Assembly: GCA_963834385.1 (NCBI GenBank) | Contig: CAWIBO010000005.1 | Location: 640,001-704,000, forward strand | Direction: 5' to 3' | Origin: an uncultured Verrucomicrobiae bacterium | GTDB lineage: Bacteria > Verrucomicrobiota > Verrucomicrobiia > Chthoniobacterales > UBA10450 | Length of the DNA: 64,000 nucleotides | Shown: in pieces, positions 57,620 through 60,141 of the stretch | Layout of the letters: each line of letters starts with the position of its first letter | Numbering within the stretch: the first letter of the stretch is position 1 | The notes under the pieces: model-generated | What the model saw: the letters and a program-made list of their open reading frames with translations, nothing else | Databases searched by the model: none | Told to the model about the DNA's origin: nothing | Made by a program: the position numbers and the translations under genes

Positions 57620-58906
57620 TTAATCCGCCAGCGCCGCCCGGATAACCTCGCCGGTCCGGGCCATTTCCTCCGGTCCGTGCGCGGTGGAGATGAACCCGGT
57701 CTCAAACTGGGACGGCGCGAGGTAAACGCCACCTTCCCGGCACGCATGGAAAAACCGGGCAAACCTCTTCAGATCGGACCGTTTGGCGTCCGCCAGCGAC
57801 CGGATCTCGCCCCCGGCAAAAAAGAGGCAGAACATCGACCCTAGCCGGTGCCATGTCGCCACCGTCCCGGTCTGGCGCAGGGCGTCGCGCATGGTTTCCT
57901 CCAGTTGCGCGCCCGAATCTTCCAGGCTTTTCCAGGCGTCCAGACGCTCCAGCTCGCGCAATTGTGCCAGGCCCGCCGCCAGCGCCAGCGGATTTCCCGA
58001 AAGGGTGCCCGCCTGGTAAACCGGCCCCGCGGGCGACAGTTTGTCCATGATCTCGGCCCGTCCGCCAAATGCTCCGACCGGCAGGCCGCCCCCGATCACT
58101 TTGCCGAGGGCCGTCAGGTCAGGACGAATTCCGTAGATTTCCTGCGCTCCACCTCGCGCGACACGGAACCCCGTCATCACTTCATCGAAGATCAACAGCG
58201 CACCCGCCCGCCGGCATTCCTCCTGAAGGGTGTCGAGGAACTCCGCAGTCGGAAAATAGAGACCGGCATTGGCGGGAACCGGTTCGAGGATGACACCGGC
58301 AACCTCGGCCCCATTGCGCGCAAAGGCTGCTCGCAAGGCGGCCGGGTCGTTAAAGGGGAGTGAAATTGTCAGGTCGGCAAACCCCCGCGGCACACCGGCG
58401 CTGTCCGGTTCCCCATGGGTCAGGGCACCGCTGCCGGCGCTGACCAGGAGGGAATCGACGTGGCCATGATAGCACCCTTCAAACTTGATGATCTTGTCCC
58501 GGCCGGTGAAACCGCGTGCCAGCCGCACGCACGACATGGTCGCCTCGGTGCCGCTGTTCACCATCCGGACCTTCTCGATTGAAGGCACCCACTGGCAGAG
58601 CAGCTCCGCCATCTCCACCTCCGCCGGGTTGGGCGTGCCGAAGCTCAGTCCGCGCGCCGCCGCCTCGGAGACGGCCTCGACCACGACTCTGGGGGCGTGT
58701 CCAAGAATGGCCGGACCCCAGGTGCCGACGTAATCGATGTACTCGTTGCCGTCGGCGTCCCAGATCCGGGCGCCCTCGGCGCGGGTGACGAAAAAAGGTT
58801 CGCCGCCGACGTTGCGGAAAGCGCGCACCGGGGAGTTCACTCCGCCCGGGATGCGCCGGAGCGCGCGTTGGAAGAGATCATGGGAGAGACCGGTCGGCGC
58901 GCTCAC
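57620..58906 (-). CDS. hemL: Glutamate-1-semialdehyde 2,1-aminomutase
   Basis: PGGVNSPVRAF, NSGTEATM, GCYHGH, FDEVMTGFR, GKVIGGGLP, YQAGTLSGNP; start may be 58942. Confidence 0.95.
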   Translation of the reverse strand: MSAPTGLSHDLFQRALRRIPGGVNSPVRAFRNVGGEPFFVTRAEGARIWDADGNEYIDYVGTWGPAILGHAPRVVVEAVSEAAARGLSFGTPNPAEVEMAELLCQWVPSIEKVRMVNSGTEATMSCVRLARGFTGRDKIIKFEGCYHGHVDSLLVSAGSGALTHGEPDSAGVPRGFADLTISLPFNDPAALRAAFARNGAEVAGVILEPVPANAGLYFPTAEFLDTLQEECRRAGALLIFDEVMTGFRVARGGAQEIYGIRPDLTALGKVIGGGLPVGAFGGRAEIMDKLSPAGPVYQAGTLSGNPLALAAGLAQLRELERLDAWKSLEDSGAQLEETMRDALRQTGTVATWHRLGSMFCLFFAGGEIRSLADAKRSDLKRFARFFHACREGGVYLAPSQFETGFISTAHGPEEMARTGEVIRAALAD

Positions 58907-59001
58907 ATGGAGTCCATAACGCGAAACTCCTCGCACTGCCACCGAGGGAAAGGTCGGGTAAGCTTCTCAAATGCGTTTGTTGTCCCGCTGAGCGGGGTTG
59001 A

Positions 59002-59043: not shown

Positions 59044-59115
59044 GGCGGGGTAGCCAAGTGGTAAGGTCGCGGTCTGCAAAACCGCTATTCGCGGGTTCGA
59101 TTCCCGCCCCCGCCT
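59044..59115 (+). tRNA. tRNA-Cys(GCA), CCA not encoded
   Basis: Acceptor GGCGGGG/CCCCGCC, discriminator U, GCGGT-CTGCAAA-ACCGC anticodon arm, GCGGG-TTCGATT-CCCGC T-arm. Confidence 0.96.
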
Positions 59116-59712
59116 CTTCATCACCCGCGGTTCTTTCATGACAACGGGGTCTTCGTTCCACGGGCTGGTTCGATTGATGAGTCCGCCTCCCGGCGGCCTC
59201 ACCCCGGTCGGGGCTTCGTCAAACAAGCTCGCCTCCCGGCGGCTTGTTTCCCGCCCCCGCCTCTTCATCACCCGCGGTTCTTTCATGACAACGGGGTCTT
59301 GGTTCCACGGGCTGGTTCGATTGATGAGTCCGCCTCCCGGCGGCCTCACCCCGGTCGGGGCTTCGTCAAACAAGCTCGCCTCCCGGCGGCTTGTTTCCCG
59401 CCCCCGCCTCTTCATCACCCGCGGTTCTTTCATGACAACGGGGTCTTCGTTCCACGGGCTGGTTCGATTGATGAGTCCGCCTCCCGGCGGCCTCACCCCG
59501 GTCGGGGCTTCGTCAAACAAGCTCGCCTCCCGGCGGCTTGTTTCCCGCCCCCGCTTCATCACGGGTTCTTTCATGACAACGGGGCTCGTTCCACGGGCGG
59601 TTCAATTGATGAGTCCTCCGCGGCCTCACCGGTCGGGGCTTCGTCAAACAAGCTCGCCTCCCGCGGCTTGTTCCCGGCCTCTTCTTCATCCGCGGCCCTT
59701 TCGTGACAACCG
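59101..59712. repeat. tRNA-linked 147-bp tandem array: 3 near-identical units, 1 degenerate unit, 1 partial unit
   Basis: Units start at 59101, 59248, 59395, 59542 and ~59671, each beginning with the tRNA-Cys 3' end TTCCCGCCCCCGCCT (degenerate in units 4-5); units 1-3 differ only at 59301 (C>G). Confidence 0.95.
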
Positions 59713-59721
59713 GCGCCGAAA

Positions 59722-60141
59722 TCACTTCTCAAGGATCCAGCCGCCGGCGACGCGGCGCCGGACCGTGGTGTATCCTTTCGAACCCGGTTCGGGCCCGGGA
59801 TGCACTTTGATGGTGAGACGGCCGGTGGCCCGGTCGAGGAAAAATTCCTTGGCCGGCCAGGTGCCATCGCCGGGAACGAAGAGGTAGTCCGGGCTTTTGC
59901 CACGGTTTTCCGGGAGACGCCGGGCATGTCGCACGGATACGGAAAAGCTCTCCACTGTTTCCTCGTGAAACTCGTAGGCGGGCAGAGCAAGAATGTACTC
60001 CTCGATTGAGGCCGATGCGGACCATTCCTCCCGCGGCGTTTCTTGGTTCGTGATCTCCCGGCTTCGGTCGCCAGCGCAAGCGACCAGCAAACTGGCGAAC
60101 AGGCCACCGACAAGCAGCCGCAGAGCGTTTCCGGCGGTCAC
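59722..60141 (-). CDS. Hypothetical lipoprotein
   Basis: Hydrophobic leader ending LLVA-C; start overlaps the upstream stop (GTGA). Confidence 0.65.
   Translation of the reverse strand: MTAGNALRLLVGGLFASLLVACAGDRSREITNQETPREEWSASASIEEYILALPAYEFHEETVESFSVSVRHARRLPENRGKSPDYLFVPGDGTWPAKEFFLDRATGRLTIKVHPGPEPGSKGYTTVRRRVAGGWILEK

Follow-up and report, generated by a model that had tools for sequence, protein, structure and literature searches.

Several tRNA genes of Escherichia coli are followed by repeats that are defined by their identity to the tail of the gene itself. These tRNA-linked repeats (TLRs) have been known for decades, and in the part of PMC8144298 available to us neither their origin nor their function is given as established. 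The same part of that paper counts 22 of them in K-12, without a known function apart from the work on rrA/B/F. It places them, by way of Egan and Landy 1978 and Rudd 1999, at tyrT (rtT), serX, lysT, the argQ cluster, proK and rrA/B/F. A second point of comparison is TnpA-REP, an enzyme that requires single-stranded substrates and cleaves at a dinucleotide, and that has been modelled as amplifying BIMEs (accessible sections of PMC3333891).

The window analysed here, a stretch of 64,000 nucleotides from an uncultured bacterium of the Chthoniobacterales, contains a tandem array directly behind a tRNA-Cys gene. The arrangement itself is already known, being of the TLR kind. The features of the array are as follows.

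59044..59116, plus strand: intact tRNA-Cys(GCA) gene, with the T-loop TTCGATT at 59096-59102, the final TT of which is the junction
59103..59115, plus strand: tail of the real tRNA (acceptor strand and 3' T-stem), doubling as the start of unit 1
59116..59166, plus strand: spacer of unit 1, 51 nt, unstructured; in relatives of near-constant length and drifting sequence
59167..59175, plus strand: T-loop-like GGTTCGATT before module 1, repeated at 59314 and 59461 and altered at 59599
59176..59249 (equally 59174-59247), minus strand, this being the presumed folded strand: module 1, 74 nt
Within module 1: hairpin 1 at about 59179-59200, hairpin 2 at 59202-59213, hairpin 3 at 59221-59249
59250..59396, plus strand: unit 2, with tail copy, spacer, GGTTCGATT and module 2 (59323-59396)
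59397..59543, plus strand: unit 3, with tail copy, spacer, GGTTCGATT and module 3 (59470-59543)
59544..59672, plus strand: unit 4, with 17 bases deleted, possibly by consensus error; module 4 at about 59608-59672
59673..about 59713, plus strand: degenerate final tail copy and spacer stub, 83% over 41 nt

The 147-bp array is confirmed with the anatomy described in a preceding sequence-only reading, in which each unit consists of 15 nt of tail, a 51-nt spacer, GGTTCGA and a 74-nt module, the junction TT being assignable to either end; one correction concerns the number of intact units, which is only three, followed by a damaged fourth and a stub. TRF reported a period of 147 with 4.0 copies over 59101-59676 and a score of 1012. 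Units 1 and 3 are identical in sequence and unit 2 is one base off, and unit 4, at 130 nt, lacks 17 bases of unit 1 and has one substitution. This deletion-only pattern seems to resemble long-read consensus error and so leaves the copy number in doubt. The unit carries no gene. Its module is made up of three hairpins and folds better than shuffled sequences (z −3.3 as RNA; z −4.1 and −4.9 as DNA, for the two strands); the tail and spacer fold no better than shuffles (z +0.3 and +1.0). An Rfam search of the array matched the tRNA alone, at both the gathering and the E-value thresholds, and assigned the module to no family. No sigma-70-type promoter was found at the array, and the terminator-like matches within it are weak (3 vs 1.7 expected). 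Divergent from tRNA-Cys is an aminotransferase class III gene at 57620-58942, which we take to be hemL, and an ORF of 139 aa on the minus strand (59722-60141), with a lipoprotein-like start and without a Pfam match, converges on the array. The earlier statement that no mobiliser lies near the array holds.

Arrays of this type stand behind tRNA-Cys and tRNA-Arg(CCT) in many Chthoniobacterales, other genera included, and the unit ends in the tail of its own tRNA. A left-end pattern search of the genome collection returned 78 loci (two pairs of which overlap), with 46 at Arg(CCT), 24 at Cys and 8 lacking a complete tRNA gene; by taxon label 75 are of Verrucomicrobiota type, two belong to Nitrospirota and one to Alphaproteobacteria. 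The Cys-linked unit is found in 18 of the 121 genomes of the family and in 10 of its 26 genera. Genomes G007 and G014, which are flagged as unpublished, contribute to the tallies and locus sets given here, but none of the individual claims depends on them. One, two, three and four units per array were counted in 35, 24, 4 and 3 cases, respectively (n=66; short-read assemblies may collapse arrays). Both the empty tRNA-Cys loci and the variable copy number that had been predicted are present in relatives, as are copies behind another tRNA, that for Arg(CCT), where the module sits at TTCGATT and is followed by that tRNA's own tail.

Over 12 nt the first tail copy equals the real tRNA in 57 of 72 arrays and differs in the other 15. 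Two common variants of the Arg tail were tracked by the copies 19 and 16 times, with one cross, and T-stem variants were tracked in two of three cases, the exception being locus L063. The length from tail to module is 52-54 at Cys and 49-58 at Arg, with one of 20, and the unit measures 141-147 among Chthoniobacterales arrays; between the spacers at Cys and those at Arg there is weak likeness at most (best E 0.044). No unit whose T-loop copy runs unbroken was found at such a spacing in any of the 121 genomes, and spacer plus GGTTCGA was never seen without the module. In the genome of the window the TTCGATT loop is present in 5 of 49 predicted tRNAs, and modules lie only behind the two in which it continues as CCCGCC. 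The Arg(CCT) module of this genome (C3:218790-218960, L160) ends early, in a run of 7-nt repeats of GGAGCAC type.

The three-hairpin fold was examined on an alignment of 62 distinct module rows (A1), in which 12 pairs show two-sided changes, in 95 cells. The controls gave 24 cells in shuffles and at most 14 when the fold was slid, a contrast that is inflated because the fold was drawn from the tested sequences themselves. In hairpin 1 a tandem G·A replaces two Watson-Crick pairs in 42 of 80 modules and is absent from 38, where these positions are mostly Watson-Crick; where pairing fails, the sense strand has T·C and the antisense strand therefore G·A. Read on the minus strand, the loop of hairpin 2 has the form G..A in 71 of the 80 (39 GNA triloops, 17 GNRA and 15 GNYA loops), and both GNA triloops and loops of GNYA form typically belong to stable DNA hairpins rather than to RNA hairpins. 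The window module is Watson-Crick at nearly all such positions and folds on either strand; full closure of the hairpins is confined to the antisense strand in most relatives. These observations point to the antisense strand as the one that folds, in the form of single-stranded DNA. Folding energy was set aside as an argument, since it favours the minus strand no more than in shuffles (59 of 61 modules vs 93% of shuffles).

A profile built from the 80 modules and searched against this genome found extra copies at C5:68013-68158 and 76361-76504. These copies occupy the apex of 2 of 15 integron attC sites, two modules in tandem at each, every module bounded by ATT. The filled attC sites are 299 and 302 bp long and the other 13, at 129-155 bp, are module-free; these read CCACT and similar, not CCATT, and thus hold no exact empty allele. 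The integron itself (C5:about 65000-82300, L159) comprises at least 15 attC sites and a cassette block that is present in duplicate; an IS110 element sits at the edge of one attC site, and C5:81232-82263 is presumably an integrase-like gene, judging by its HxLRH motif.

In metagenomes a right-end pattern gave at least 121 loci, 114 of them distinct among the matches listed, which were sorted by regular expressions; the right-end CCATT of these copies was imposed by the search pattern. Among the matches listed, 45 of the 114 distinct copies stand before a tRNA tail and 39 lie in REP-type hairpins, and the remainder comprises 12 before GTCGAT, 4 nested copies and 14 others. TT forms the left junction in 100 of the 106 copies for which this could be called, again among the matches listed, with 8 not callable. 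No longer duplication and no terminal inverted repeats are found at the module ends, which share only TT or ATT. The reading frame is open through the module in 4 of 6 tested sites of GTCGAT type, the host genes being, on our reading of their motifs, purD-like, dihydrouridine-synthase-like, amidohydrolase-like and acetyltransferase-like. Modules are also nested in other modules (L075, L094, L103, L130) and sit inside CGTC-type hairpins (L193). On one contig among the at least 121 metagenome loci (L258/L259) one GTAG REP is present in two filled and two empty copies around a REP-associated tyrosine transposase (RAYT) gene, with an exact empty site, and the module interrupts the REP stem and may be a passenger in the REP. 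Many of the REP and tRNA copies may stem from few insertion events.

We consider it very probable that the module is independently mobile, and it is likely to be a small non-autonomous mobile hairpin element. The proposal in the sequence-only reading of such an element, amplified in tandem, draws support from the arrays and from the module copies elsewhere. The module is not unique to this locus, as the copies behind tRNA-Arg(CCT) attest, and its junctions elsewhere are not confined to the T-loop. The part of the proposal that made the T-loop its specific target fails because modules also sit in attC sites, REPs, genes, CGTC-type hairpins and other modules: only 45 of the 114 metagenome copies among the matches listed precede a tRNA tail, and this genome carries the attC copies. 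Across the phylum the right-end pattern matched 37 of 401 genomes, with the hairpin only in G000 (3 matches) and G049 (6), and the other matches, which have no hairpin, were set aside as probable chance. A scan of viral sequences with the left-end pattern gave 9 matches, all attributed to chance, and blastn of the module against plasmids gave one weak partial match type (E 0.6).

The likeness to the tyrT repeats that had been remarked on from the sequence stands, in that tyrT units read GGTTCGA, module and AATCC tail. The serX and proK units read likewise, and those at lys and arg agree with them in module end and tail. TLRs lie directly downstream of a tRNA or rRNA gene, and the present arrays, of 1-4 units, are placed likewise behind a tRNA gene; the 3' end of the unit is that of the gene upstream, over 15 nt here and over 18-19 bp in E. 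coli. Both have tandem G·A and triloops of GNA form, and both have the end motif CCC-GNA-GGG-YGA-hairpin-GCGARTCAATC, which abuts the T-loop AATC on the folded strand. On the other hand, the folded strand is antisense here, with loops TTCGATTC, whereas it is sense, with loops TTCGAATC, in all TLRs seen. Units are 141-147 here vs about 170-180 in E. coli, the spacer here has neither an inverted tail copy nor a terminator, and free insertions outside tRNA and rRNA genes are shown here but not for E. coli K-12.

Profile searches (nhmmer) of modules against the TLRs of E. coli gave nothing significant (E 0.44, 1.2 and none), and the Rfam rtT model found no match on the modules. An end descriptor of 23 letters, written after both module sets were seen, matches 12 of 80 modules and, in the 4.6-Mb K-12 chromosome, the three serX TLRs only, its reversed control matching none. 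On viral contigs 7 of its 9 matches are TLR units at tRNA-Ser tails, three of them with the exact Chthoniobacterales ending, and a second viral descriptor gave 14 matches, 5 of TLR type and 9 by chance. From these sequence comparisons homology of module and TLR is plausible. We would suggest, tentatively and at somewhat less than even weight, that TLRs and the Chthoniobacterales arrays represent one old family of mobile single-stranded DNA hairpins. Its members would enter the T-loop on the GA^ATC strand, with the loop sequence setting the orientation; the real T-loop, acting as a second cut site, would spare the gene and have its own tail re-copied in each round, and the family would still be spreading, here to attC sites, REPs and genes. 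A module end of TLR type is also found without a tRNA at L424, possibly a free insertion of the proteobacterial type, upstream of a gene that we take to be glutaminyl-tRNA-synthetase-like. In the K-12 rrn terminators (L151, L152) the rRNA-linked TLRs meet the 5S tail at A^A too.

Other known systems resemble the module in part. REP, BIME and REPIN sequences with their RAYT enzymes are likewise non-autonomous, strand-specific hairpins with a dinucleotide junction and tandem amplification, and they too show mosaic nesting and in-frame insertion into genes (available parts of PMC3333891 and PMC3733652). They differ in that the module foot has no GTAG or CGTC, the GTAG at these loci being that of the host REP, and in that the module, of ~72 nt with three hairpins, is low in copy (9 per genome here), inserts into REPs itself and has no dedicated flanked transposase that was found; the known site of TnpA-REP is CT, that of the module AA/TT. 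Rickettsia palindromic elements (RPE) share the insertion of short palindromes in frame into housekeeping genes (PMC3733652, in the part available). The NTS/SRM repeats of Ssn GIY-YIG enzymes are similar in being single-stranded DNA hairpins with one active strand (accessible part of PMC11893778), and small GIY-YIG genes abound in the host family. Modules, however, have no SRM pattern and enter CGTC-type hairpins (L193) rather than being such hairpins, and the portion of the main text of PMC11893778 at hand makes no mention of tRNA. A classical MITE of the DDE kind would differ in its terminal inverted repeats and target-site duplication, both of which the module lacks. Elements of the IS200/IS605 group produce no target duplication; matching autonomous ends of that group were not found, and the arrays with tRNA tails are an additional feature here.

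The mechanism that we favour treats the module as a non-autonomous single-stranded DNA element moved in trans by an HUH transposase (Y1, RAYT/TnpA-like), and we give the full model about an even chance of being right. The folded strand would be bound as single-stranded DNA and cut at AA at each module end, and the real T-loop would serve as a third such cut site. Joining of a module-end cut to the T-loop cut would release or re-copy tail, spacer and module together, about 145 nt, and reinsertion of this unit at either site would lengthen the array and keep the tRNA intact; slippage, or recombination of one tail copy with another, could contribute in addition. An HUH enzyme is favoured because it alone combines recognition of single-stranded DNA hairpins, a dinucleotide junction without duplication, strand joining and tandem amplification (PMC3333891). 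No autonomous partner was found among the Y1, GIY-YIG and IS110 loci searched. The search for co-occurring nucleases or recombinases that the sequence-only reading had proposed came back without a partner: 0 of 32 Y1-transposase loci have a module near them and 1 of 38 GIY-YIG loci has one, and conversely 0 of the 78 genome module loci have a Y1 or GIY-YIG gene within 2.5 kb. At the metagenome module loci (at least 121) Y1 genes were seen at 3, on two contigs, and a GIY-YIG gene at 1, among the matches listed. The IS200 gene near a module at L280 was rejected as the autonomous partner, since it has its own ends. The Y1 domains of this genome number three, and it has a single small GIY-YIG gene and a single IS110. 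Y1 domains lie in frame in leucyl-/alanyl-tRNA synthetase ORFs, at C2:733659-733850 (L154) and C3:125156-125338 (L155).

An unlikely alternative, though one with points in its favour, is that the module is the recognition hairpin of a small, Ssn-like GIY-YIG nuclease cassette, or the unit a gene-less relic of one, and that nick repair between tail copies builds the array. Ssn enzymes cleave one strand of hairpin repeats (PMC11893778, part available). Small GIY-YIG genes are expanded in the family, with 1-13 matches per genome (UvrC counted), and in all 7 of the 7 arrays examined they are repeated in tandem together with 3' halves of tRNAs, those for Pro, Met, Asn and Lys; furthermore, the half-module at L248 is about 170 nt from a GIY-YIG gene, which lies just upstream. 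In those arrays, however, the T-loop is intact, the tRNAs are different ones and no module was found, and GIY-YIG genes are absent from the Cys or Arg(CCT) position in counts of 0 of 78 and 0 of 19 loci. The L248 half-module is the one, partial, module at 38 GIY-YIG loci. The SRM pattern is present in 0 of 80 modules and nowhere in the array, a weak test that also missed the repeats around the GIY-YIG gene of this genome. Such a nuclease alone does not account for precise insertions in genes, attC sites and REPs. The GIY-YIG arrays (L354-L360, in G056, G058, G020, G021, G003 and G012) have units of 305-328 bp, made up of the gene and the 3' half of the neighbouring tRNA, with a short hairpin in place of the anticodon arm. 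The locus L248 is a tRNA cluster; one of its tRNAs has a CAT anticodon and a TTCGATTCCCGCC arm, and directly behind it come a right half-module and the tail of that tRNA. The small GIY-YIG gene of the present genome (C2:117370-117588, L157) has CGTC-type hairpin repeats on its flanks, in an Ssn-like layout.

That the array is kept as a functional RNA, with tRNA-Cys read-through cut to sponges or regulators of about 147 nt like E. coli RrB, we hold to be rather improbable. The rRNA-operon TLRs of E. coli are transcribed and processed, and their products were bound by Hfq and CsrA in vitro (PMC8144298, in the part available). The rttR annotation overlies a tyrT repeat, the spacer is constrained in length, and the window module folds on the sense strand as well and is accompanied by the weak terminator-like matches. 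The idea is disfavoured because the hairpins of most relatives close fully only on the antisense strand, so that hairpin 1 on the sense strand would hold T·C mismatches in about half of them. The distribution is also patchy, the unit being present at Cys in 18 of 121 genomes; genes, attC sites and REPs carry the module as well, and it has no Rfam match. Transcription is likely as a by-product, but this would not make the RNA the cause. At about 81% identity, one contig from an RNA library covers a relative's tail, spacer and module; DNA carry-over is possible, and it was not counted.

It is very unlikely that the units are attachment-site scars of tyrosine-integrase islands crossing in the T-loop, with the module as an arm sequence or a passive later insert. 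The tRNA-Cys gene is an island hotspot with displaced tails and arm-like repeats, and 8 of the 78 loci have no complete tRNA gene. The crossover core of integrases is usually about 7 nt, however, and only 2-3 nt are shared to the left of the tail. In addition, the duplicated tRNA segment is always interrupted in the T-loop, none of the 121 genomes having a module-free unit, the 145-nt unit has no cargo, and the other module sites are unrelated to tRNA. Equally hard to sustain, and if anything more doubtful, is movement of the module by an RNA-guided recombinase of the IS110 family through a TT core. Members of this family use short cores and have a preference for REPs and attC sites, and the single copy in this genome belongs to the same integron array, with about 3 kb between it and a filled attC site, but the element has sub-terminal repeats of its own, a position at the attC edge and ends unlike those of the module, and the target flanks of the module are too diverse for one guide. 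Finally, that assembly produced the array artificially from a single unit is scarcely credible: unit 4 has its deletion-only damage and no public sequencing run spanning the array was found (none had above 0.12 of its words, and DNA contigs did not cover it), but arrays of 2-4 units with unit-specific differences occur independently at 31 of 66 related loci, and the unit is not an artefact because arrays of 1-4 units with equal anatomy are found in other genera.

A search of the literature, in which subscription journals were thinly covered, gave no description of the Chthoniobacterales module family, of TLR mobility, of TLR modules outside tRNA and rRNA genes or of the strand rule. With a TLR-like module now seen in filled and empty sites away from tRNAs, and with its junction and folded strand defined, mobility of the module may account for the so far unexplained TLRs of E. 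coli, and the TLR question comes down to the enzyme that cleaves the GNA-loop strand at A^A. The results also point to a small mobile element, in a soil lineage that is common, by which integron attC sites are altered; the attC strand altered by the module is the one that integrases use. In housekeeping genes insertion of the module adds about 24 codons. Two further repeats were noted in the same genome. Behind tRNA-Ala(TGC) (C5, c409501) the tail from AATCC onward is repeated about 80 nt downstream, as a TLR-like unit with a different insert, and short repeats lie downstream of the tmRNA too (C1, c63016).
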